Origin: an uncultured Clostridium sp.
Lineage (GTDB): Bacteria; Bacillota; Clostridia; Lachnospirales; Lachnospiraceae
Length of the DNA stretch: 64,000 nucleotides
Direction: 5' to 3'
Assembly (NCBI GenBank): GCA_900539185.1
Contig: UQBG01000012.1
Coordinates: 4,910-68,909, forward strand
The notes under the pieces: generated by a model
The model's database searches: none
Seen by the model: only the letters and a program-made list of their open reading frames with translations
What the model was told of the DNA's origin: nothing
Shown: piece after piece, positions 5,612-37,414 of the stretch
Layout: the number at the start of each line of letters is the position of its first letter
Numbering within the stretch: position 1 is the first letter of the stretch
Program-made: the position numbers and the translations under genes

Positions 5612-6721
5612 CTATACAGCAGTTGTACTTATATTGACCGGAAGAATTACATAACGATAAGTCTCATCATCATCCTTTATATAGCAAGGAGCCTTCTGGT
5701 TCATAAAGTAAATACTTACTTCTTCATCATCAATGACACGAAGAGCATCCATCAAGAGCTTTGGATTAAATCCTATGATCAGATCCTTTCCTTCTTTTCT
5801 GGTATCCAATTCCTCATTCATGGAACCGAGAACGGAATCAATCTTCATATATATGGTGTCATTTTTAATATTTATAATAATCGGCTTCTTATCGGATTCC
5901 TTTATTAACAGAGAAGCACGATCAATACAATTTAAGAAATCCCGCTTATTAATAATCACCTTTGTTTCATAATCGTTGGTCAACATCTGATTGATCTTAT
6001 AATATTCGCCCTCCAGAAGACGAGAAACAACCTTTGTCTCACCAAACTCAAATAATATATGCTTATCTGTGAAGTAGATATCGACATAGTCATCGGTTCC
6101 GCCTTCCAGAATTTTACTTACTTCATTCAAAGTCTTTCCCGGAACAACCACCTTTATCAGATCATGATATTCCTTTAAAGCCACATTACGAATTGATATT
6201 CTGTGACCATCCAGAGAAACAATCTTCATATTGTTTCCTTCTATTTCGAATAATTCGCCGCTCATCAGCTTTGTACTTTCATTTTCTACAGTAGAAAATA
6301 TGGTTTGTCTGATAAATTCCTTAACTGTAAACTGAGATAAACTGATACCTTTATTCCGTTTTACCTCCGGTAAAAGAGAAAAGTCATCTCCGGATTTGCC
6401 GGAAATTACAAACTTTGACTTTTCACAACGGATCGTAGCCTGATAGTTTTCATTGGTTTCAATCAGAATTTCACTATCAGGAAGCTTTCGTATATATTCA
6501 AAAAATAGCTTTGCATCAATGGCTATTTTACCAGGATCCTGAATGGAACCTTCTACATAAGTCTCGATACCCAGTTCCATATCTGTTGCAGTTAACTTAA
6601 TTTTATCTTCTGCTTCGATCAGAATACATTCCAGAATCGGAAGTGTAGTCTTATTGGAAACAGCTTTCATAGCAGTGCTAACGGATGAAAGTAAATCCGC
6701 TTTCGTACATGTGATTTTCAT
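5612..6721 (-). CDS. dnaN: DNA polymerase III beta sliding clamp
   Basis: ORF-track frame 5612..6829 trimmed to ATG at 6719-6721 (MKITCTKADLL...), which has a GAAAGGAG RBS. The longer extension has no RBS and would overlap the unwinding region. Confidence 0.9.
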   Translation of the reverse strand: MKITCTKADLLSSVSTAMKAVSNKTTLPILECILIEAEDKIKLTATDMELGIETYVEGSIQDPGKIAIDAKLFFEYIRKLPDSEILIETNENYQATIRCEKSKFVISGKSGDDFSLLPEVKRNKGISLSQFTVKEFIRQTIFSTVENESTKLMSGELFEIEGNNMKIVSLDGHRISIRNVALKEYHDLIKVVVPGKTLNEVSKILEGGTDDYVDIYFTDKHILFEFGETKVVSRLLEGEYYKINQMLTNDYETKVIINKRDFLNCIDRASLLIKESDKKPIIINIKNDTIYMKIDSVLGSMNEELDTRKEGKDLIIGFNPKLLMDALRVIDDEEVSIYFMNQKAPCYIKDDDETYRYVILPVNISTTAV

Positions 6722-7004
6722 AATGTGAAAAACTCCTTTCTCCCGGCCGGGATAAAAAACAATATATAAATATTTAAATGATTTCCGTCTTATTCGTAGT
6801 AGGGGCAGTGGATATGTTAATAACCCCACTGAACCATTGAAAATAAAGGAATCATGATATTCAAAAGTCTGTTAAAAAGGATCCTGAAACCTGTTAAAAA
6901 AGGATCACTTATCAACAGGGTGAAAAGAAATGTGAATCATAAATAAACAAAAGAAACATAGTTATGCACATTTATTCACAATCTGTCCACCTGTTATAAA
7001 CAGA
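6722..7004. other. oriC region 2 (incC-like, dnaA-dnaN intergenic): DnaA boxes plus candidate unwinding module
   Basis: Boxes TTATCAACA 6909-6917, TTATGCACA 6962-6970, TTATTCACA 6972-6980, TGTCCAC 6984-6990. Direct repeat CTGTTAAAAA(A)GGATC at 6869-6883 and 6891-6906. Nearest dnaN: box AGTGGATAT 6807-6815, then GGGGC, then NAN trinucleotides 6787-6801, then an AT-rich run 6741-6786. Confidence 0.6.
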
Positions 7005-8372
7005 TTAAGAAGGAATAATTTTCTTCTTAATCGTATCAATCGTAGAAGCTAAGTTCTGATCGGTTTCCATACGATCCTTGATCTTATCAATGGAATGCAT
7101 AACAGTAGAATGATCCTTTCCTCCAAAGTAATCACCAATGGATTCCAAAGACTTCTCTGTCATAGTACGGCAAAGATACATGGAAATCTGTCTTGCCTGA
7201 GCAATATCAGCACTTCGTCTGGTTGAAAGAATATCTTCCTTTGAAATGCCCAGATGTTCACTTACGATATCGGTGATAAGCGAAGGTGTTACTTCACGGT
7301 TCGTATTCTTTGATATAAAATCCCGAAGGGTTTCTTCTGCAAAAGGAACGGTGATTGGCTGTTTGTCCAGCTTGGAGAATACACTGATTTTATTCAAAGC
7401 ACCCTCCAGCTCACGAATATTGGAAACAATATGCGTGGCAATATACTGAATAACATCATCCGGTATATTAATATTATCCTGTTCTGCGCGTTTTCGAAGA
7501 ATCGCCATGCGAGTCTCATAATCCGGTGATTGGATATCAACGGGAAGTCCCCATTCGAGACGAGACTTAATACGATCCTCCAGGTTTTCAATCTCCTTCG
7601 GAGCCTTATCAGAAGATATGACAATCTGTTTACCGGCTTCATGAAGGACATTAAAGGTATGGAAAAACTCCTGCTGTGTAGATTCCTTTCCTATTATAAA
7701 CTGAATATCATCCAATAAAAGAAGGTCAATGTTACGATATTTATTACGGAATTCTTCTGTTTTGTTCTTTTTTAATGCTTCAATCAGTTCGTTAGTAAAG
7801 GTTTCACTTGTAACATATAATACTTTTGCATTTTTATTATGTTGAAGAACGTAGTGACCGACGGAATGCATAAGATGAGTCTTACCAAGTCCTACGCCTC
7901 CATATAAAAATAATGGATTGAATGCCTGTGCCGGTGCTTCCGCAACTGCAACGCAGGCAGCATGAGCATGGCGGTTATTGTCACCTACGACAAAAGTATC
8001 AAAGGTATAGCGTGGATTCAGATTACTTGCTTCCATATTATATTCCATATAATTGTCGGAAGAAGCAACCGGAGCAGCTTCCTGTGTAATTTCATCCGGG
8101 GAAGAAATCAACTTAATATCATAGTCTTCATTCATTACAATCTGGATCGAAGCCTTAATAAACATGTCATACATTTTCGTTTTAAGAAATTCGATTCCCC
8201 GTTGTCCCAGTGTATCATCCGCTAATAAATAGATGGTATGATCCTTTACGTCATATATTTTCAGTGGACGAATCCAAGTATTAATGGTAATCGGTGCAAC
8301 TCCGTGTTCTAACTGAATGGAGTAAAGAATCTTTTCCCAGTTTTCTTCAATTTTCTCTTTTATAGCATTCAT
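7005..8372 (-). CDS. dnaA: Chromosomal replication initiator DnaA
   Basis: AAA+ Walker A GGVGLGKTHL and C-terminal DnaA-box binding domain. The track start at 8384 is TTG with the RBS directly abutting it. The ATG at 8370-8372 (MNAIKEK) has GAAAGG 12 nt upstream. Confidence 0.9.
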   Translation of the reverse strand: MNAIKEKIEENWEKILYSIQLEHGVAPITINTWIRPLKIYDVKDHTIYLLADDTLGQRGIEFLKTKMYDMFIKASIQIVMNEDYDIKLISSPDEITQEAAPVASSDNYMEYNMEASNLNPRYTFDTFVVGDNNRHAHAACVAVAEAPAQAFNPLFLYGGVGLGKTHLMHSVGHYVLQHNKNAKVLYVTSETFTNELIEALKKNKTEEFRNKYRNIDLLLLDDIQFIIGKESTQQEFFHTFNVLHEAGKQIVISSDKAPKEIENLEDRIKSRLEWGLPVDIQSPDYETRMAILRKRAEQDNINIPDDVIQYIATHIVSNIRELEGALNKISVFSKLDKQPITVPFAEETLRDFISKNTNREVTPSLITDIVSEHLGISKEDILSTRRSADIAQARQISMYLCRTMTEKSLESIGDYFGGKDHSTVMHSIDKIKDRMETDQNLASTIDTIKKKIIPS

Positions 8373-8807
8373 AGATGAAAGCAACCTTTCAAAGTTATTT
8401 CCTTATAAAATAAGTAACAAAGGGCACAAAAAGACCCATATATAATATATAACAAATTTTCATTTTTCGCAAGAAAAAGGGGGATTATTTCCATTTACTG
8501 TTTAACATAATGTCATTCCCATAAGAATGTAAAAATATGGTATTCACAGAATCAACAGTTGATATTTCAGAGAAAAATGCAGAAATCAGAAAAAAATCCA
8601 CACGTAAAACAAGAGTTTTCCACAGGTTATACACAAATTGTTGATAACATTATGTTAAGTACAAAATAAACTTTACGAAAATTATGCTTGACTGTTGAAA
8701 CGCTTTTCCATATAATAAATTAGGTGTTTTTTCATAAAAGCCATATTTGGAAAATAATAAAATAGTTAAATATAGATTTAACTAATGGTCGAAGGAGGTG
8801 TATAGAA
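8373..8807. other. oriC region 1: AT-rich dnaA-upstream spacer with DnaA-box cluster
   Basis: Boxes near consensus TTATCCACA: AAATCCACA at 8594-8602, TTTTCCACA at 8616-8624, TTATACACA at 8627-8635, and TGTTGATAA (reverse orientation) at 8639-8647. Lies between divergent dnaA and rpmH. Confidence 0.65.
8688..8716 (+). promoter_or_regulatory. SigA-type promoter of rpmH (-35 TTGACT, 17-nt spacer, -10 TATAAT)
   Basis: TTGACT at 8688-8693 and TATAAT at 8711-8716, about 90 nt upstream of rpmH. Confidence 0.55.
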
Positions 8808-23260: not shown

Positions 23261-24028
23261 TCAACCTCCGATATTTGTAATTACTTCATCTGCCAGAAGT
23301 CGGTAGCTCTCAGCACCGGCAGATCTGGAATCATATAGGTTAATAGGAAGCCCATGACTCGGTGCTTCTGCTAATCGTACATTTCTTGGAATAATCGTTT
23401 TATATATATTTTGTTTTAAGGTGTCTTTTACATTTTCCACTACCTGCAGGGAAAGGTTTGTACGAGAATCATACATGGTAAAGACTACCCCTTCTATAGT
23501 AAGATTTTTGTTCAATTTCTTTTGAATCAGTTCAATTGTATAAATCAACTGAGATAACCCATCCAATGCAAAAAATTCACATTGAATCGGAACCAATACG
23601 GTATCAGCAGCTGTCATGGAGTTGACGGTTAATAGTCCTAAGGCCGGTGGACAGTCAATAATAATGAAGTCATATTTGTTCCGTAGTTTATCCAGATTCT
23701 GTTTCAATATGTACTGCATATCCGGAACCCCGACAAATTCCACCTCTGCACCAGCCAATAATCGATTCGCCGGAATCAGATTCAAATCTGGTATAACATT
23801 AATCAGCATACATTCACCGATATTGCAGTTGTCACACATTACATCATAAATGGTGTATTTCAAATCATTTTTATCTACACCCAAACCGGTTGTTAGATTT
23901 CCCTGTGGATCCATATCAACAGCCAGTACCTTTAACCCCTTTTCAGCAATGCATGCTGCCAGATTGATAGCGGTAGTGGTTTTGCCGACACCACCTTTTT
24001 GGTTTGCAATGGCAATAATTCTTCCCAT
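23261..24028 (-). CDS. parA: Chromosome partitioning ATPase ParA/Soj
   Basis: 255 aa with deviant Walker A KGGVGKTT. Confidence 0.9.
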
Positions 24029-24117: not shown

Positions 24118-24133
24118 TGTTTCACGTGAAACA
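24118..24133. promoter_or_regulatory. parS site 1 (perfect TGTTTCACGTGAAACA)
   Basis: Exact 16-bp consensus parS palindrome upstream of parA. Confidence 0.75.
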
Positions 24134-24196: not shown

Positions 24197-24212
24197 TGTT
24201 TCACGTGAAACA
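24197..24212. promoter_or_regulatory. parS site 2 (perfect TGTTTCACGTGAAACA)
   Basis: Second exact copy 79 bp from the first. A degenerate half-site AACGTGAAAAG follows near 24240. Confidence 0.75.
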
Positions 24213-24904: not shown

Positions 24905-25558
24905 ATGAAAAAATATGAAGTAGTGCTGTTTGATCTGGACGGTACCCTGACAGATCCGGGGATTGGGATTACAAACTCAGTAGCATATGCATTCGAGAAA
25001 TATAATATTCACATAAAAGAACGAGCGGAGCTGTATCGGTTTATCGGTCCACCGTTAGTAGATTCGTTTCAAAACTTCTATGGTTTTTCTGACGAGCAGG
25101 CGTTAGAAGCAGTCGAATATTACCGGGAGTATTATCAGGATAAGGGTATATTTGAAAACTATGTATATGATGGAATCCCTGACCTGCTGGAAACTTTGCG
25201 GGCGAGAGGAAAGCGATTAATCGTAGCAACATCCAAGCCGGAGGAATTTGCAAAGAGGATCATAAAGCACTATGATTTGGAAAAATACTTTTCTTATGTA
25301 GCCGGAGCAACAATGGACAATCAGACAAGAATAACCAAAGCAGCAGTGATCCGGTATGCATTGGATACCTGCCAGATCGAACAGACTGAAAAGGTAGTCA
25401 TGGTGGGGGATCGGAAGCATGATGTACTGGGAGCGGCACAATGGGGAATCGATACGATCGGAGTTCTATATGGATATGGAGATCGAGAGGAACTGGAAGC
25501 TGCCGGAGCACGCTATATTGCAGATACGGTCGAGCAGATTGCAGGGATCATACAGTAA
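24905..25558 (+). CDS. HAD-superfamily hydrolase (phosphatase, subfamily IA)
   Basis: 217 aa with motif I DLDGTL, ATSKP and GDRKHD. Confidence 0.75.
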   Translation: MKKYEVVLFDLDGTLTDPGIGITNSVAYAFEKYNIHIKERAELYRFIGPPLVDSFQNFYGFSDEQALEAVEYYREYYQDKGIFENYVYDGIPDLLETLRARGKRLIVATSKPEEFAKRIIKHYDLEKYFSYVAGATMDNQTRITKAAVIRYALDTCQIEQTEKVVMVGDRKHDVLGAAQWGIDTIGVLYGYGDREELEAAGARYIADTVEQIAGIIQ

Positions 25559-25560
25559 AA

Positions 25561-25620
25561 CGCTAAACGGAGAAGCACTAAACAGAGAAACACTAAACAG
25601 AGAAACACTAAACAGAGAAA
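25561..25620. repeat. Tandem repeat, 4 x 15 bp (CACTAAACAGAGAAA; first copy degenerate)
   Basis: cgctaaacggagaag followed by three identical cactaaacagagaaa units, between convergent HAD and argS genes. Confidence 0.85.
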
Positions 25621-25627
25621 CGAAAAA

Positions 25628-25684
25628 GCCGGAATATGGGTGATTACGCCTTCAATGAAAGGAAGACAGCATCCATATTCCGGC
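25628..25684. terminator. Long inverted repeat (12-bp stem GCCGGAATATGG / CCATATTCCGGC, 33-nt loop); possible bidirectional terminator
   Basis: Arms at 25628-25639 and 25673-25684 with flanking A-run and T-rich sequence. Confidence 0.4.
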
Positions 25685-25711
25685 TTGTATAATTGGTGTT
25701 GCAGTATAGTA

Positions 25712-27406
25712 TTACATCTGCTCCGGACAGTTGATACCTAGCAGAGCCAATGCATCCCGTAAGGTCTTACGTGTGACAGCCACTAGCTTTAAACGGGCAT
25801 TGCGGATATCTTCCTCCGGTACATTGATACGGTTTGCAGTATAGAACCGATTGAAGGACTGTGCAACATCAATAGCAAAACGAGAGATCATAAACGGCTC
25901 ATACTTATCGGCAGCATCTGCCACTGCCTTTGGAAACTTGTTGATCGCCTTCAATAGTTCCATAGAGTCCAGGTCAGTTAATACGGAGTAGTCAATCTCC
26001 TTTGTTTCATCAAAGTCGGGAACCGCACGTAACAGGCTGCTACAACGAGCATAGGTATACTGAACATATGGACCGGTTTCTCCATCGAAGTTCAGAATCT
26101 TGTCCCATTTGAAAGAAACATCTTTGATTCGCTGGTTGAACAGGTCATTAAAGATGATAGCACCGACACCAACCATCTTTGCTACTTCATCTTTATTCTC
26201 CAGATTTGGATTCTTTTCAGCGATAATCTCCTTAACCTTGGAAATGGCTTCTAATAAGATGTCTTCTGCATAAATAATATTTCCGCTTCGGGTAGACAGC
26301 TTGGCACCTTCCAGACTGACCAGACCATAAGGAATGTGAATCAACTGGTCAGCAGCCCATTCGTTTCCTAAAAGCTCTACAACTTTGAATACCTGAGCAA
26401 AGTGCAAACGCTGTTCCTGGCCGGTAACATAGAGACACTTCACGAAGTTATAGGTTTCTTTCCGGTAGAAGATGGCAGCCAGATCACGGGTGGCATAGAT
26501 AGAACCACCATCGGCTTTCTTTATAATGCAAGGAGCCATATCGTATTCGGATAGATCTACAATGTAAGCGCCTTCGCTTTCTTTTAATAAATGTGCCTGT
26601 TCCAGACGATCAACAACCGCCTGTGTTTTATCACGGTAGAAGCTTTCGCCGTTGTAGGAATCAAATTCGACACCTAACAGTTTATAGATTCTGCGATATT
26701 CGATCAGGCTGATATCTTTAAACCACTGCCAGATCGACAGGGCTTCTTCATCTCCTTGCTCCATCTTTACAAACCAGGCACGAGCCTGTTCAATCAGAGT
26801 TTCGTCCTCATTTGCTTCTTCATGGAACTTTACATATAAGTCCATAAGTTCAGCAATTCCTTTTTCTTCAACGGCTTCCTTGGAACCCCATTTCTTATAA
26901 GCAACGATCAGTTTACCGAACTGTGTTCCCCAGTCACCCAGATGATTGATCCGATGTACGGTGTAACCCAGCTTGCTATAGATCTTGGCAAGAGAATTAC
27001 CGATGATAGTTGTACGCAGGTGGCCGACATGGAAGTTTTTTGCCACATTAGGAGAAGAGTAGTCAATACAAATATTCTGTCCGTTTCCGATATCAGAACC
27101 GCCAAAGTTGTCAGCAGAAGCAGCATTCAACATTGTCTTAACAAACAGATCCTTCTTAATATAGAAGTTACAGTATGCACCCTGTACCCGGATCTCTTCT
27201 ACGAAGTCCAAAGAGCCCAGAATGGCATTCTTCAGATCTTCGGCAATCAGGTTTGGAGCCTTGTGCATGGTTTTTGCCAGGCGGAAGCATGGAAATGCGT
27301 AATCACCTAATTCCGGCTTTGGAGGAACTTCAAGCAACCCCAGAATATCGGAGGCTGTTAATCCTTCTACATGTTGTGAAATAATGTTCGCTAATTGTTC
27401 TTTCAT
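25712..27406 (-). CDS. argS: Arginine--tRNA ligase
   Basis: Trimmed to the ATG at 27406 (MKEQLANIIS), giving 564 aa. The longer track frame would overlap the upstream gene and has no RBS. Class I motifs and the C-terminal DALR anticodon-binding region are present. Confidence 0.9.
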   Translation of the reverse strand: MKEQLANIISQHVEGLTASDILGLLEVPPKPELGDYAFPCFRLAKTMHKAPNLIAEDLKNAILGSLDFVEEIRVQGAYCNFYIKKDLFVKTMLNAASADNFGGSDIGNGQNICIDYSSPNVAKNFHVGHLRTTIIGNSLAKIYSKLGYTVHRINHLGDWGTQFGKLIVAYKKWGSKEAVEEKGIAELMDLYVKFHEEANEDETLIEQARAWFVKMEQGDEEALSIWQWFKDISLIEYRRIYKLLGVEFDSYNGESFYRDKTQAVVDRLEQAHLLKESEGAYIVDLSEYDMAPCIIKKADGGSIYATRDLAAIFYRKETYNFVKCLYVTGQEQRLHFAQVFKVVELLGNEWAADQLIHIPYGLVSLEGAKLSTRSGNIIYAEDILLEAISKVKEIIAEKNPNLENKDEVAKMVGVGAIIFNDLFNQRIKDVSFKWDKILNFDGETGPYVQYTYARCSSLLRAVPDFDETKEIDYSVLTDLDSMELLKAINKFPKAVADAADKYEPFMISRFAIDVAQSFNRFYTANRINVPEEDIRNARLKLVAVTRKTLRDALALLGINCPEQM

Positions 27407-27432
27407 AATATATTGTATGTCCTTTCTGGTTC

Positions 27433-28713
27433 TTATTGCTGTGTAGCTGATGTATGACCGGGAGCGGAAGTCTCCGGCTCTGTACATATCGGGAATGAAA
27501 AACGGATATTGGTACCACTGATGATGTCACCGTCGATCTGAAGTTTTCCATCCAGTAAATGAACAATTTCATGGAGACGGTGAAGACCACTGTGCCAGGG
27601 ACTGGCAGTCAGATAGTCGGAAGGGATGCCGGCCCCATTATCATTGATATAGACATCTACCATTCGAGCGTTAATGTATACTTTTACTAATACGCGGTTC
27701 GCGTTGGAATAGTAGAATATGTTATCCATAATCTCACGAAGCAGCTGCAAGAGTGTAATCGTGATGATAGGAAGAACGTGTAATTCATAGTCCGTGCAGT
27801 CAACAGAAGCATCGATGGAACACTCCGGATGTAGGGACTTATAATGCTGGATACAGTCATCAATCGCCAGCCAGATCGGAGGCTGCGTTGTGAGACTCTG
27901 ATCTAGATCCTGTAAAATCATATCCATTGTATGCAGGAGTCTGGTATTGGTATCCTGCAGTTCCTGAAGCGTTAGTCTGGCTCTGGTAGGATCTGACTGA
28001 ATCAGCCATTTCAGAACCTCCAGCCTGTTCTGATTATTTTCCAGTCCCTGTTGAAGGGAACTGCGAAGTTGCTTTGCAGCCTGAGATTTATCATACTGAT
28101 TAAACATTAGAATCTGACAGGCATGGTAGGTAGAATCCTCTGTACTATCGGTAGCCGGAATAGTCAAATCCGATACTGTCTCTTCGGAAGGTGCTTCTGA
28201 CTGAGGCAAGGACTGGTAAAGGGAAGCCAGACTCTGATTCGCAGCTTCCAGAGACTGAATATGTGTCCGAATTGTTGTTAAGTCCTGTTCCAGCTTCTGA
28301 ATCCGTTTCGAGAGAGAAGTACGTACTTCCTGAAGCTCATCTAACTGTGCCTGAATGACCTGGCCTTTGCCCTGATTATCAGAGTTGACCGGGAGCGGCG
28401 AGAAAAAGTTCCGACGGGTATCCGACTGGAAAGAATAAATATTCTTTGTTTTTTCTAATTCCTCGATCTTAACATTCAGTTCGAAGAGTTCCGTCTTTAA
28501 TGTCTGTATCTGCTCAGACTGTGTTACATAGACGGAGCGGAAATAGTTTAATAAGTCCCAGTTTGTGGCACGCAGAGTATTCAACTGATCGTCCATCGAT
28601 AAATCAGGGGTATCGTTCGGAGCCTTGGCATTATCCGCAGAAGCTTCTTCGGTATGTGCCTCGGCAGCGAAAGCATTTAATTCATCAACGATATTAAACT
28701 GCTTTTCATCCAT
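27433..28713 (-). CDS. Hypothetical cytoplasmic coiled-coil protein with C-terminal GHKL (HATPase_c-like) domain
   Basis: 426 aa. Strong AAGGAGGG RBS. Q/L-rich heptad region (LQELQEVRTSLSKRIQKLEQDL...). C-terminal NDNGAGIP G1-box-like motif. No obvious H-box and no TM segment. Confidence 0.5.
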   Translation of the reverse strand: MDEKQFNIVDELNAFAAEAHTEEASADNAKAPNDTPDLSMDDQLNTLRATNWDLLNYFRSVYVTQSEQIQTLKTELFELNVKIEELEKTKNIYSFQSDTRRNFFSPLPVNSDNQGKGQVIQAQLDELQEVRTSLSKRIQKLEQDLTTIRTHIQSLEAANQSLASLYQSLPQSEAPSEETVSDLTIPATDSTEDSTYHACQILMFNQYDKSQAAKQLRSSLQQGLENNQNRLEVLKWLIQSDPTRARLTLQELQDTNTRLLHTMDMILQDLDQSLTTQPPIWLAIDDCIQHYKSLHPECSIDASVDCTDYELHVLPIITITLLQLLREIMDNIFYYSNANRVLVKVYINARMVDVYINDNGAGIPSDYLTASPWHSGLHRLHEIVHLLDGKLQIDGDIISGTNIRFSFPICTEPETSAPGHTSATQQ

Positions 28714-28769
28714 AGTAATCCCTCCTTATCGAATCGTAGTATAACGCTCAAATAAACTATAATAAATGA

Positions 28770-30191
28770 TTAAAAATGCAGCTTGCTGTTCTTGGAACGA
28801 CGCTTCAGATAACGGTAGCGTCGACTCTTGATCCGATACACAATGAAAAGAGCAAGCGTTACAAGAACAATACCGGAAATAGCGATAACAAGTGTCAGAT
28901 TCACCCGACGCTTATGTTCCTCCGGTGTGGTTCCCCAACGTAATACTTCTCCATTTACAGTCATATCACTGTATATGATATCGGATTCTCCGATGACGGT
29001 TCCTTGATAAAGAACGGAAATCTTTCCGACTACGTTATTTTCTAATGTATCGTAATAAGTAGTTTCGGTGGTCAACTCTGACGGATCGGTACTTCTGGGA
29101 ACTAAAACTGCCAGATCATTATCAATCGAAAGATTCAAAGTGTCATGATCAAGTCCGTGATAGAAGTTTGTTAAAATCGGATCGGTCGCAGTCACGGTGT
29201 TCGGATTCAGATTTTGCAATGGATACATATAGGTATAGTTATCAAAGTAGTAGTTGTATAAAGCAATGGAATCATTGTAGCAGTTCGCAGCACCATGACA
29301 GTCCATCATAACGCAGATCAGTTCCATTCCGTTTTTCTGAGCATAGGTAACCAGAGTATTCCGTGCCTGATCGGTAAAACCGGTTTTGCCACCCTCCAAC
29401 GGTTCATAGTAGTATCGGCTGGTAGGATAAAGCATTTTTAACTGATGCCAGAGATCCCGTGGCTCTTCGGTTAAATTCGTTGGTGGAATCTGGTGATAGG
29501 TTGTTTCATCTATCGTTCGGAATACCGGGTTCTGAATGGCTGCCTGTGTGATCAGAGCCATATCGTAAGGGGTTGTGTAATGATTATCATCGTGCAGGCC
29601 ATTGGGATTTACAAAATGAGTGTCTTTACAACCCAGTTCTGCCGCCTTGGCATTCATCATATCCGCAAAGGCCTCTACGGAGCCGGCTACATGTTCAGCC
29701 ATACCGATGGATGCCTCATTGGCAGACTGCAACAGGATCGCATAAAAGCAGTCTTCTACAGAAATCTGTTCCCCTACATCCAGAGCGATATGATTGCTGT
29801 CACGTTCAATGCCCCAGATTGCATTTTCCGAAAATGTGACGGTGTCGGTCATGGTTGTATGATCCAAAGCAACCAGGCAGGTCATGACCTTAGTGATACT
29901 GGCGGGATAGCACCGCCGATCCATATTTTTACCATAAAGAACCGCGCCGGTCTTTGCATCGATTACAATCGCAGCGTTTGCTACGATCGAAGGTGCACTC
30001 GGATCTGTAATATCTGCCGGTTCTTCGGTAGAAGTATCGCCGGCGGAATCAGAGGTGTCATCTGAGGAAGTATCCTGAGAAAGATCCTCTGCCATTGCAA
30101 TGCGGGTACCTGCACCTGTCGAAATAATATAAGAAAAAGATAATAGACAGGCCAGAAAAAGAGTGGCTGTCTTCTTAAAAAAAGTCTTCAA
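28770..30191 (-). CDS. dacB: D-alanyl-D-alanine carboxypeptidase (PBP5/6 family, S11) with C-terminal membrane anchor
   Basis: SxxK SITK, SxN SANEAS and KTG GGKTGFT motifs. Signal peptide then acidic low-complexity linker. Start is TTG at 30189-30191 with GGAGG 6 nt upstream. Confidence 0.8.
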   Translation of the reverse strand: MKTFFKKTATLFLACLLSFSYIISTGAGTRIAMAEDLSQDTSSDDTSDSAGDTSTEEPADITDPSAPSIVANAAIVIDAKTGAVLYGKNMDRRCYPASITKVMTCLVALDHTTMTDTVTFSENAIWGIERDSNHIALDVGEQISVEDCFYAILLQSANEASIGMAEHVAGSVEAFADMMNAKAAELGCKDTHFVNPNGLHDDNHYTTPYDMALITQAAIQNPVFRTIDETTYHQIPPTNLTEEPRDLWHQLKMLYPTSRYYYEPLEGGKTGFTDQARNTLVTYAQKNGMELICVMMDCHGAANCYNDSIALYNYYFDNYTYMYPLQNLNPNTVTATDPILTNFYHGLDHDTLNLSIDNDLAVLVPRSTDPSELTTETTYYDTLENNVVGKISVLYQGTVIGESDIIYSDMTVNGEVLRWGTTPEEHKRRVNLTLVIAISGIVLVTLALFIVYRIKSRRYRYLKRRSKNSKLHF

Positions 30192-30271
30192 AATAGGCCT
30201 CCAAAAAACATAGTCATACTTATTAATATATTAGTATAGAAAGGCAAAATAGTCAATGAAAACTGGCGTTT

Positions 30272-30300
30272 GTTGACACTGGAAGAAGGGGCCGATATAA
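30272..30300 (+). promoter_or_regulatory. SigA-type promoter of trmB (TTGACA-17-TATAAT)
   Basis: Perfect consensus hexamers at 30272-30277 and 30295-30300. Confidence 0.6.
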
Positions 30301-30354
30301 TGAAAACAGCAGGAAGAAGACAGAAGAGACTTCCGGGCAGAAAGAGGATGTAAG

Positions 30355-30996
30355 ATGCGATTAAGAAATGTAAAAGGCTCAAGGGAAACAATAGCGGCAA
30401 ATGAGTATGTGATAAAGGAAGAAACACAGTATAAGGGAAAGTGGAAAGACATATTCGGAAATGATCATCCGATTCATATAGAGATCGGAATGGGAAAGGG
30501 ACAGTTTATCACAACGCTGGCGCAGCAGAATCCGGAAATTAATTATGTAGGGGTTGAAAAATATTCAAGTGTGCTGATCCGGGCGATTGCGAAGCAGGAG
30601 GAGCTGCAGCTGCCAAACCTTTATTTTATCCGTATGGAGGCAGAGTATATAGCAGATGTATTTGCACCGGATGAGGTAGAACGGATTTATTTGAACTTCT
30701 CGGATCCATGGCCAAAGGATCGGCATGCGAAGCGGCGGCTGACCTCGAAGGAATTTCTGGCAAGATATGATCAGATTCTGGTACCGGAAGGAGTCGTGAT
30801 CTTTAAGACCGATAATCGCGATCTTTTTGACTTCTCTCTTGAGCAGGTGCCGGAGGCCGGATGGAAACTGGTAAACTATACATATGATCTCCATCATAGT
30901 GAGTATCTGGATGGAAATATTATGACGGAGTATGAAACGAAGTTTGTGGCAGAGGGAAAACCGATCGGCAGACTGGTAGCCGGAAGAGAAAAATAG
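30355..30996 (+). CDS. trmB: tRNA (guanine46-N7)-methyltransferase
   Basis: 213 aa with SAM-MTase motif IEIGMGKGQF and FSDPWPK. Confidence 0.85.
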   Translation: MRLRNVKGSRETIAANEYVIKEETQYKGKWKDIFGNDHPIHIEIGMGKGQFITTLAQQNPEINYVGVEKYSSVLIRAIAKQEELQLPNLYFIRMEAEYIADVFAPDEVERIYLNFSDPWPKDRHAKRRLTSKEFLARYDQILVPEGVVIFKTDNRDLFDFSLEQVPEAGWKLVNYTYDLHHSEYLDGNIMTEYETKFVAEGKPIGRLVAGREK

Positions 30997-32959: not shown

Positions 32960-32998
32960 AGCAAAAGTTGCTGAAGAGATTCAGTAACTTTTGCTTTC

Positions 32999-33072
32999 CG
33001 GAATGTGGCTCAGTTTGGTAGAGCGCTTCGTTCGGGACGAAGAGGTCGCGTGTTCGAATCACGTCATTCCGA
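32999..33072 (+). tRNA. tRNA-Pro (anticodon CGG)
   Basis: 74-nt cloverleaf: CGGAATG-TG-GCTC-AGTTTGGTA-GAGC-G-CTTCG-TTCGGGA-CGAAG-AGGTC-GCGTG-TTCGAAT-CACGT-CATTCCG-A. The track ORF 32991..33665 overlaps it as an in-frame artefact. Confidence 0.85.
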
Positions 33073-33078
33073 TGCTGG

Positions 33079-33125
33079 AAAAAGAGCGGAATCCCCAGAG
33101 TTTTCAAGGGGTTTCGCTCTTTTTA
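33079..33125 (+). terminator. Intrinsic terminator after tRNA-Pro
   Basis: Stem AAAGAGCG ... CGCTCTTT enclosing CCCCAGAGTTTTCAAGGGG, followed by a T-run. Confidence 0.6.
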
Positions 33126-33182
33126 CATTACGTGATTTTTAACTCAGGGATTATAGGTACAGAACGTAAGGGATGTAGGAAT

Positions 33183-33665
33183 ATGAATCAGATTAAGAAG
33201 GCAACGGAAGCGGATGCACAGGAAATTTTAAAATTATATCAGACGATGCTGTACGGACCGGCAGACTGGAATGAAGGCTATCCGTCTCACAAGACAATCG
33301 CATTTGATCTGTCAAGAGGGGCTTTGTTTGTTATGAAGAATGCGCAGGGGGAGATTTTGGCTACAATCTCGATCGATGAGGATGAGGCGGTTGAACGACT
33401 GACCTGTTGGGATCCGGCACTGCAGCCGAGTGCAGAGCTTGCAAGACTTTGTGTACGGAAGGATGCACAGGGAAAAGGCATTGCGAAGCAGATGATGCGG
33501 TTTGTGTTCGGAATTCTCAGAGAAGAGGGGGAAAAAAGTGTCCATATACTGGTAAAGACGGGGCACGAGGTTGCACTTTCTGCCTATCGAACACTTGGAT
33601 TTCGTGAGGTTGGAACCTGCCATTTATTTGATAAAGATTTCATTTGTATGGAAATCATTCTTTAA
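33183..33665 (+). CDS. GNAT-family N-acetyltransferase
   Basis: Trimmed to the ATG at 33183 (MNQIKKATEADAQEIL). Acetyl-CoA motif RKDAQGKGIAKQMM. Confidence 0.7.
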   Translation: MNQIKKATEADAQEILKLYQTMLYGPADWNEGYPSHKTIAFDLSRGALFVMKNAQGEILATISIDEDEAVERLTCWDPALQPSAELARLCVRKDAQGKGIAKQMMRFVFGILREEGEKSVHILVKTGHEVALSAYRTLGFREVGTCHLFDKDFICMEIIL

Positions 33666-35470: not shown

Positions 35471-37414
35471 ATGCAATATAGCGATGAAATGGACAAAACG
35501 CAAGAAGGGATACATTTGAAGAAGAAAAGGTTTGTAAAATTAAAAAAAACAGGAAATATCTTTGCGATTATGGGACTGTCTATCATTTGGGTTATAGCTG
35601 CGTACACATTTATTCTGCAAAGTGCCTATACTAAGACTGCACTGGAAACAGAAATCTCCCGTGATAGAGCAAGTGCAGATGCAGTCCATAAACTGGTGGA
35701 TGGAAAAATTGGGTGGGAGGATTTTTCACAAATCAAGGATCGCTCCGATGAAGATACACAGTTCTATAAGGATATTTCCCTCTACCTCAACGAGATCCGG
35801 ACATTGAATTCTACAAGGTATATTTACATTGCTACGAGAAACGAAGAAGGAAAACTGATCTATGTGGTGGATGGTTTGAATCCAGATGCCGGGGATGTAA
35901 GACATCCCGGGGATTATATAGAGGATGAAATGATTCCCTATATTGAAAGGGCTCTCTCTGGGGAAAACGTGTATTCTCAAGATATTGTGGACACAACCTG
36001 GGGACCAATTTTCACGGCCTGCTATCCGGTACGTTCAAATCTGGATGGAACGGGAGAGATCGTAGGTGCATTCTGTATTGAAATTGATATGCAGTCTGCG
36101 TATGGCATGGTAGAGAAGACAAAAAACATATCTGTAATTTGTGGCACGATTGCCGGATTAGTGTTGCTGATGATCTGTTTGAGTATCTATTTTATCTACC
36201 AGAAAAGCAAGAAAGAAGAATATACGCAAAAGCAACAGTTGTTGGAAGCTGTGGAAAAAGCAGATGCTGCCAATCAGGCAAAATCTACATTTTTGCTTAA
36301 CATGAGCCATGATATCCGAACCCCAATGAATGCCATCATTGGATTTACCAATATTGCATTGCACCAGAATGCGGTTGCAGAAATACATGAAAGTCTGGAA
36401 AAAGTGCGGGAAAGTTCCAATCATCTGCTTTCGTTGTTGAATGATATTCTTGATCTCAGTCGTATTGAAAGTGGAAAAACAGTGTTTTCTCCTGAACCGG
36501 TGAATATTACCGAGCTGACAGATAATGTTCTGGCAATCATGAAAGGCCTTCTTTATAACAGAGATTTGAAGATTGAAGTATACCGTGAAAGACCAAAGAA
36601 TTCCTATGTTCTTGCAGATGCTGCACGTATTCGAGAAGTTCTGACGAATCTTCTCAGTAATGCTGTGAAATTCACAAAGGATGGTGGAACGGTCACACTG
36701 GACATCAGCAGTCATCCGGGAGAGGATGACAAGCATATTGTAGCCCGTTATATTGTTCGGGATAACGGTATTGGGATGAGTGAAGAGTTTCAGAAAAACC
36801 TATTTAAACCATTTTCACAAGAAGATGACAGAGGTGCCAGAACACAATATAAGGGTACCGGACTTGGAATGGCCATTACAAAGGAATATGTTCACATGAT
36901 GGGAGGCAAAATTGACTTTGAAAGCAAAAAGGGCATTGGAACTACTTTCATAGTGGAGATTCCGCTGGAGTTGACAGAGCAAGATATTCATCAAAAGCAA
37001 GAAGATCCAGTGAATCGTGATTTGACAGGTGTTAATGTTCTTATGGCAGAGGATAATGATCTGAATGCTGAGCTTGCTACGGTGATGCTGGAGGATGCAG
37101 GCATGGTTGTGACACGGGCATCCGATGGAAAGGAAGCGGTCGAACTATTCAAAAATCATCCACGAGGCACTTACGATATTATATTGATGGATATTATGAT
37201 GCCGAATATGGACGGATATCAGGCTGCGAAAACTATTCGGGCCATGGAGATGGAGCGACCGGACGCAAGTACGATTCCGATTATTGCCTTGTCCGCAAAT
37301 GCTTTTGTGGAGGATATCAAGGCTTCATTGGATTCTGGTATGAATGGTCATATTTCAAAACCATTTGACATGGAAGAAGTAACCGATACAATCACAAAAT
37401 ATGTCAAGTCTTAG
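35471..37414 (+). CDS. Hybrid sensor histidine kinase / response regulator (orphan)
   Basis: 647 aa. Two TM segments flank a periplasmic domain of about 170 aa. HisKA H-box [12 protein letters not shown]. HATPase_c with DNGIGM and GTGLGM. C-terminal receiver with DIMMPNMDG. Confidence 0.85.

Follow-up and report, generated by a model that had tools for sequence, protein, structure and literature searches.

Bacillus subtilis DegS is a soluble kinase in which a coiled-coil N-terminal region is followed by HisKA_3 and HATPase_c domains, and its size is similar to that of the protein considered here. Pseudo-histidine kinases are, to our knowledge, rarely documented outside Alphaproteobacteria. 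Caulobacter DivL is such a protein: devoid of kinase and phosphatase activity, it acts through its binding to a phosphorylated response regulator (PMC4211667). Here, we analysed a 64,000-nucleotide stretch of DNA from an uncultured Clostridium sp. of the Lachnospiraceae (contig UQBG01000012.1, positions 4,910 to 68,909; hereafter, the window), in which a gene that we name X is located between the genes dac and argS. The product of X, named 'hypothetical protein' at NCBI (MDD6331035.1), descends from a NarL-type soluble kinase, without having kept the phospho-acceptor histidine or the regulator, and it is worth following both for the pseudokinase transition and for its tie to argS. We hold, with moderate confidence, that dac, X and argS are co-transcribed and that X is a pseudo-histidine kinase repurposed from a soluble kinase of the NarL type.

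Kinase ancestry and phosphotransfer centre of X

An earlier description of this locus, made from the letters of the window only (the sequence-only reading), presented X as a protein with a Q/L-rich coiled-coil N-terminal half and a C-terminal part resembling a Bergerat (GHKL) fold, without H-box, transmembrane segment or receiver. The two folds were recovered in our analysis: the N-terminal half is helical in the AlphaFold model and rich in leucine and glutamine residues, and the C-terminal part matches Pfam HATPase_c above its gathering score (27.5 bits against 26.4, residues 320-408) and forms a CA fold in the model. PF02518 is also precomputed for about two thirds of 101 X homologues. The model, a monomer built on 30 homologues with a predicted local distance difference test (pLDDT) score of 80.8, contains in addition a DHp hairpin preceding the alpha/beta CA domain (pLDDT ~90 in residues 280-410). 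Its best Foldseek matches are the cytoplasmic domains of DesK (E = 1e-10, target TM-score up to 0.80 for DHp and CA), and the CA domain of VraS is matched with a target TM-score of 0.75. The NCBIfam NarQ model covers residues 199-412 of X, that is, DHp and CA (E = 3e-14), and a profile of the X family matches the CA domains of DosT and VraS, and DesK. As predicted from profiles and model, X is a complete soluble homologue of NarL-type (HisKA_3) kinases, and more than a coiled coil joined to a GHKL domain.

Within the CA domain we identified N-box residue N331, a G1 box (D358-N-G-A-G362, part of the NDNGAGIP motif at residues 357-364 pointed out in the sequence-only reading), G400-T401 and a remodelled lid (W373, S375 and H378). 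Neither a transmembrane segment (maximum of 1.54 in a 19-residue Kyte-Doolittle window) nor a receiver domain (Pfam) was found in X. X of the window gives no match to Pfam HisKA_3, nor does its DHp alone at E <= 10; among the other family members, isolated DHp regions gave sub-threshold HisKA_3 or HisKA matches in two, and the best HisKA_3 score of the family is 17 bits (P0024), against a cut-off of 24. A literature search for a characterised family member returned general background only.

X resembles DesK, NarQ, VraS and LiaS in the order of its domains, a DHp hairpin and then a CA domain whose ATP lid is short, and in its intact N-box Asn and DxGxG motif; unlike them, it lacks the transmembrane sensor, the His-Asp of the H-box, the DxxxQ Gln, the R...P motif of alpha2, the lid Arg and a cognate regulator gene. 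It differs from Bacillus subtilis DegS in having neither a DegU partner nor a phospho-acceptor His. Although the JGI label 'DegS' is attached to one X homologue and to canonical relatives of X (the sister kinases, see below), membership in the DegS family was rejected, as PF05384 was not matched by X up to E = 1 or by the sister kinases up to E = 1e-3, and no NCBIfam equivalog of DegS type was found. X proteins should not be named 'sensor histidine kinase DegS'. The sequence-only reading had also proposed a divergent kinase or an anti-sigma-type GHKL ATPase; the kinase homology stands, given the DesK-like DHp and CA, whereas the anti-sigma alternative (a Ser kinase of SpoIIAB type) was discarded, with no HATPase_c_2 match up to E = 1 and with dac, argS and trmB as neighbours. 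An anti-phage defence system was considered as well and rejected, since the only PADLOC signal was coiled-coil noise of 14 bits against JetC.

The X family is small, with 54 cluster representatives at E <= 1e-30 among 1.8 billion proteins, and all its named members are Lachnospiraceae or labelled gut 'Clostridium sp.'. The next-best profile matches are canonical soluble HisKA_3 kinases of equal length, from Anaerocolumna, Anaerosporobacter and other Lachnospiraceae, whose H-box is fully canonical and whose HisKA_3 scores exceed the gathering threshold. These sister kinases (e.g., P0157) and X have in common the length, the N-terminal hairpin with its F-S-P loop, the DHp base, the CA core and the chromosomal neighbourhood; the sisters have a canonical H-box and an abutting NarL-type regulator gene, whereas X has neither, and is followed by argS instead. 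The sister loci are organized as rsmG-(GNAT)-kinase-regulator-parA-parB-DUF4446, and the regulator gene abuts the kinase gene in the four loci looked up (L081, at 6001-7775, L083, L085 and L086, all from Anaerocolumna-like Lachnospiraceae); no NCBIfam equivalog names this conserved kinase-regulator pair. The X loci read X-argS-(0-3 genes)-parA-parB-DUF4446-DUF3881 and, in the most divergent member, with 27% identity to the protein of the window, jag-mnmE-mnmG-rsmG-hydrolase-X-argS; X-argS is also present in a second deep member. Because the deepest member sits at the place of the canonical kinase and is followed by argS instead of the regulator gene, we conclude from gene order that X is the positional orthologue of the rsmG-parAB-linked kinase, argS having taken the place of the regulator gene.

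We searched for the missing regulator with tblastn, using a sister regulator as query, and obtained no match in the window and a single weak match in the flanks of 68 related loci (L016, E = 4.5e-8). No response regulator was detected by Pfam among the ten neighbouring open reading frames (ORFs) of the window, and no canonical kinase-regulator pair is present after rsmG or before parA in the window. We conclude that regulator loss, H-box loss and the arrival of argS would all date to the base of the X family.

The loss of the phosphotransfer centre was examined in an alignment of 170 full-length X-family members (26-98% identity), compared column by column with 110 sister kinases. The column of the canonical His was fixed by the alignment of His169 of P0157 (HisKA_3 profile position 10) with R217 of X, and also by the weak HisKA_3 match in a His-bearing family member. 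The H-box that the sequence-only reading could not find is, in fact, missing: the R217 column holds His in all 110 sister kinases, in 25 of the 170 X sequences and in none of the 27 cluster representatives of the family, and it is variable across the family (D, R, E, S, N and Q). Seven residues that are 100% conserved in the sister kinases are all lost in X (H217, D218, Q222, R264, P272, G279 and R383). Column 218 is occupied by S218 in X of the window, column 222 by Q (36%), D (32%) or E (19%) across the family, and the lid Arg of column 383 is replaced by Ile. The losses of X extend over the whole phosphotransfer centre (the acceptor His and the adjacent Asp, the DxxxQ Gln, the Arg and Pro of alpha2 and the lid Arg) and leave none of the residues that autophosphorylation, phosphotransfer and phosphatase activity require in canonical relatives. 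No intermediates between the X family and the sister kinases were observed among 95 cluster representatives, and the split is clean. Two proteins of the sister clade, P0193 and P0208, have Tyr at the phospho-acceptor column and lack R264 and G279 as well; they seem to have lost the histidine independently, in the manner of DivL.

The ATP pocket shows a different pattern. N331, D358, G360, G362, G389 and G400 are invariant in all 170 sequences, and the G2 region of the family reads Y/H374-S375-G376-L377 instead of G-x-G-L. The F104-S105-P106 loop and the DHp base (K230, L237, D241, R244 and A245) are common to the X family and the sisters. Residues gained by the X family include most of N-terminal helix 1, H197, T248, E251, C306, N337, N339, W373, S375 and H378; no part of the family is better conserved than helix 1, whose conserved residues are X-specific, and H197 is a His in 162 of the 170 members and absent from the sister kinases. 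X appears on these grounds to be under selection and not decaying, because 170 full-length members at such divergence share many invariant residues and have gained newly conserved ones; such conservation implies a dN/dS well below 1 over the gene.

Linkage to argS and the putative transcription unit

X and argS are adjacent in 65 of the 66 evaluable genome loci and in two deep metagenomic members, which gives a total of 67 out of 68 related loci. Across 65 related loci, the two genes are separated by a median of 42 nt, and their stop and start codons overlap in five. The sole exception is L062, in which X is not followed by argS: after X comes a 1.25-kb AT-rich non-coding stretch (7114-8365) with about ten parS palindromes (GTTTCACGTGAAAC), and then parA. 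No dac gene precedes X in the deep members or in 11 of the 68 related loci, and the orientation of trmB varies between related loci. The trio of dac, X and argS described in the sequence-only reading is thus only partly a conserved unit in related genomes, with X-argS being retained and dac-X not. Because dac is absent from these loci and the X-argS junction is nearly invariant, the association with dac, and with it the cell wall, is predicted to be younger and looser than the association with argS and parAB. The suggested link of X to cell-wall metabolism is weakened accordingly by the dac-less loci, among them the deepest members, and by the positional homology of the locus with rsmG-kinase-regulator-parAB.

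In the window, dac, X and argS are located head to tail on the minus strand, with gaps of 56 nt (dac-X) and 26 nt (X-argS). The tight packing reported for the three genes, including its coordinates and both gaps, proved exact, as did the TTG start and GGAGG ribosome-binding site of dac (Table 1), and the arrangement is that of one apparent operon. Neither promoter-like minus-strand sites inside X (consensus scan) nor terminator-like sites in the dac-X and X-argS gaps were found, and the X/argS junction is unstructured, with a z-score of 0.06 in RNA folding against shuffled sequence. The hairpin downstream of argS, after which comes a U-run, folds with -30.2 kcal/mol (z = -6.45), an equally good fold being obtained in none of 200 shuffles, and likely marks the operon end. 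Given the packing of the genes and its conservation, the unstructured junction, the lack of internal promoter- or terminator-like sites and the terminator past argS, we infer a single dac-X-argS transcript, which would start in the trmB-dac intergenic region and end at this hairpin. The argS gene would then have no leader of its own and be expressed by read-through. The promoter upstream of dac is only a candidate, because the consensus-scan matches in the region are no more numerous than expected from shuffled sequence.

The sequence-only reading had noted that argS lacks a T-box or other leader, and had regarded this as unusual for an aminoacyl-tRNA synthetase gene. The first part holds. At gathering thresholds, Rfam identified only three tRNAs in the whole window and no T-box (RF00230), and a permissive scan of 27200-30600 retrieved nothing relevant; with the non-folding junction, these scans rule out a T-box or other leader RNA at argS, and neither the Rfam nor the promoter scan places a T-box or a promoter of argS inside X. 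The second part does not hold. The core T-box motif was described in only ~61% of the upstream regions of aminoacyl-tRNA synthetase genes of Firmicutes, and near-universal T-box control was reported for ileS, alaS, serS and thrS (PMC2494555). The T-box is also absent from the 18 related loci scanned (18/18), including those with X-argS gaps of 276-366 nt. A literature search for a statement on the T-box of argS returned general background only. Because so many upstream regions in Firmicutes lack the motif and the 18 related loci are likewise without it, the absence of a T-box ahead of argS is genuine but ordinary, and a T-box-less argS should be read as normal in this clade.

Possible functions of X

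The sequence prerequisites of a pseudo-histidine kinase are present in X, where the phospho-acceptor His and the catalytic motifs are lost, and X most likely acts as one, by analogy with the repurposed Caulobacter DivL. Both proteins have a kinase fold that has lost the phospho-acceptor His and is nevertheless conserved. DivL, by contrast, is an alphaproteobacterial protein of the HisKA type with PAS domains, in which a conserved Tyr stands for the His, and its partner is DivK~P; the residue at this position varies in X, whose ATP core is better kept.

X descends from a soluble NarL-type (HisKA_3) sensor kinase whose gene, in other Lachnospiraceae, is accompanied by that of its NarL-type regulator in the interval from rsmG to parAB. 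The X lineage has no such regulator gene, argS occupies its place and the phosphotransfer centre has been lost, while the dimerisation hairpin and the invariant Mg-ATP core were kept and the N-terminal hairpin became far more conserved than before. We propose that X may be a dimeric scaffold or switch that binds nucleotide and is possibly gated by it, and that it would signal by protein-protein contacts through the N-terminal hairpin and the DHp base, and not by His-to-Asp phosphotransfer. X would then represent a clean and datable case of a pseudo-histidine kinase in abundant gut Lachnospiraceae (e.g., Coprococcus and Wujia), and the canonical pair beside parAB, set against the regulator-less X lineage, would offer a ready comparison of what a kinase fold does after kinase function ends.

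Several observations weigh against this proposal. The N-box Lys (column 334) is kept in only 86 of the 170 sequences and the first Gly of the G2 box is lost, so that the ATP affinity of X is uncertain in either direction. The invariant ATP core and the conserved remodelled lid (W373, S375, H378, N337 and N339) argue for an active enzyme at least as well as for a passive scaffold, and the near-invariant H197, which is predicted to occupy an exposed 'f' position of the hydrophobic repeat, could be a relocated phospho-acceptor. The structure considered is a model of the monomer, and a partner regulator may be encoded elsewhere in the genome, as our search covered the window and the flanks of the related loci. 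As for co-transcription, an internal promoter may precede X or argS, and genomes without dac must use another promoter for X-argS.

The alternative that survives best, although we consider it unlikely, is that X is an active histidine kinase in which H197 serves as the relocated acceptor, signalling to an unlinked regulator or phosphotransfer protein. From position 156 to 201, no residue other than H197 is conserved in at least 90% of the family; H197 lies at the beginning of DHp alpha1, faces outward by the hydrophobic repeat and is absent from the sisters; the ATP core is invariant, and the DHp base, which is the regulator docking site on canonical kinases, is common to X and sisters (K230, L237, D241, R244 and A245). 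Nevertheless, H197 is 20 residues, or ~30 A along the helix, away from the canonical site and above the level at which alpha2 ends (residue 270 pairs with ~212), so a regulator docked at the conserved DHp base would be out of its reach. The residue after H197 is G, A or N, and not acidic as in the H-D/H-E of canonical kinases, the alpha2 Arg/Pro motif and the lid Arg, present in 100% of the active sisters, are gone, and no regulator gene lies nearby except for the weak match in the L016 flank. We know of no HisKA_3 kinase with a shifted phospho-acceptor, which also counts against a role of this kind for H197.

It is distinctly unlikely that X is a different GHKL enzyme, either a Ser/Thr kinase in the manner of SpoIIAB/RsbW or PDK/BCKDK, or an ATPase acting on a partner such as arginyl-tRNA synthetase (ArgRS), the carboxypeptidase or ParA/ParB. 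In the mitochondrial PDK/BCKDK kinases, a helical bundle and a GHKL domain are kept, and the invariant nucleotide core of X, together with newly and strongly conserved positions of the pocket and lid (N337, N339, W373, S375, H378, G395 and D396), would suit a new activity, as would an X-argS junction that is nearly invariant while every other junction varies. However, HATPase_c_2 is not matched, no STAS/anti-anti-sigma or sigma factor gene is adjacent and there is no direct pointer to any substrate; the adjacency is equally explained by reliance of argS on an upstream promoter, and L062 has X without argS. Slimmer still is the prospect that the GHKL/DHp module has acquired an output that stands in for the lost response regulator and is tied to ArgRS, for example by modifying, sequestering or sensing ArgRS or the status of arginine/tRNA-Arg via H197 or the remodelled pocket; if true, this would explain why X-argS is the only unbroken junction across the family. 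Lastly, it is hardly credible that X is a functionless relic whose frame is kept for a promoter or for translational coupling needed by the essential argS. The lost catalytic centre, the absent regulator gene and the overlapping or almost touching X and argS of many genomes might suggest this, but the family comprises 170 intact full-length copies whose identity falls to 26%, dozens of residues are invariant (surface positions among them), the DxGxG/N-box is fully intact, new conserved residues were gained, and X persists in L062 without argS downstream.

Feature coordinates and wider window

The features of the locus are collected in Table 1. The argS product scores 512 bits against TIGR00456 (cut-off 262) and contains all three of the Pfam domains Arg_tRNA_synt_N, tRNA-synt_1d and DALR_1, by which it is predicted to be a standard arginine--tRNA ligase. 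The dac product matches Peptidase_S11 (212 bits) and NCBIfam DacA (7e-36), its SxxK, SxN and KTG motifs are intact (SITK98, SAN156 and KTG269), and it carries a signal peptide and, with a hydrophobic tail at residues 433-451, a membrane anchor at the C-terminus; it is, on these motifs, a predicted PBP5-type D-Ala-D-Ala carboxypeptidase.

Table 1. Positions in the window of the dac-X-argS genes, of their putative transcription signals and of the regions and key residues of X.
Feature	Position	Strand	Residues of X	Description or basis
dac	28770..30191	-		TTG start with GGAGG 7 nt upstream; 473 aa
X	27433..28713	-		ATG start, AAGGAGG ribosome-binding site; 426 aa; soluble, histidine-kinase-like
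argS	25712..27406	-		ATG start at 27406, 26 nt past the X stop codon; 564 aa
Candidate operon promoter	30228..30262	-		Two overlapping sigma-70-like -35/-10 pairs directly upstream of dac; consensus scan only
Perfect TTGACA-17-TATAAT	30273-30301	+		Divergent from the dac promoter candidate, facing trmB
Intrinsic-terminator-like hairpin (25626-25686), then UUUUUCGUUU	25618..25686	-		~25 nt past the argS stop codon
N-terminal helical hairpin	28210..28596	-	40-168 (helices 40-94 and 110-168)	AlphaFold pLDDT >90
Disordered acidic linker			169-193	AlphaFold model
DHp-like hairpin	27904..28134	-	194-270 (alpha1 194-240, turn D241-P242, alpha2 242-270)	AlphaFold, Foldseek and alignment to canonical HisKA_3 kinases
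CA (GHKL/Bergerat) domain	27478..27876	-	280-412	HATPase_c, DosT/VraS profile matches and conservation in 170 sequences
Codon of the canonical phospho-acceptor His column	28063..28065	-	R217	Alignment to P0157 His169
Codon of the family-specific His at the start of DHp alpha1	28123..28125	-	H197	20 residues before the canonical site; conservation table

The window appears to span a replication origin region. In its first part (1-24000), which includes rsmG, parA, parB, DUF4446 and DUF3881, the GC skew changes sign near 7-8 kb, and the ORFs at 5612-8384 are candidates for dnaA and dnaN. Two perfect parS sites (TGTTTCACGTGAAACA) were identified at 24118-24133 and 24197-24212, in the intergenic region directly upstream of parA (23261-24028, minus strand), where none is expected by chance.

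A second kinase-like gene of the window, an ORF of 647 aa (35471-37414, plus strand), codes for a CA domain of kinase type and is matched by a sister kinase in tblastn at 36629-36970 (E = 4e-6). An ORF of 224 aa with a TTG start (32991-33665, plus strand) overlaps a tRNA at 32999-33072, and only its C-terminal part is similar to GNAT acetyltransferases; because of this overlap and of the limited similarity, its true start is probably located downstream of the tRNA. A tandem repeat with a 15-nt unit (AAACACTAAACAGAG; 4.3 copies, 91% matches) occupies 25558-25621, in the interval that separates the argS terminator from a convergent HAD-phosphatase gene.

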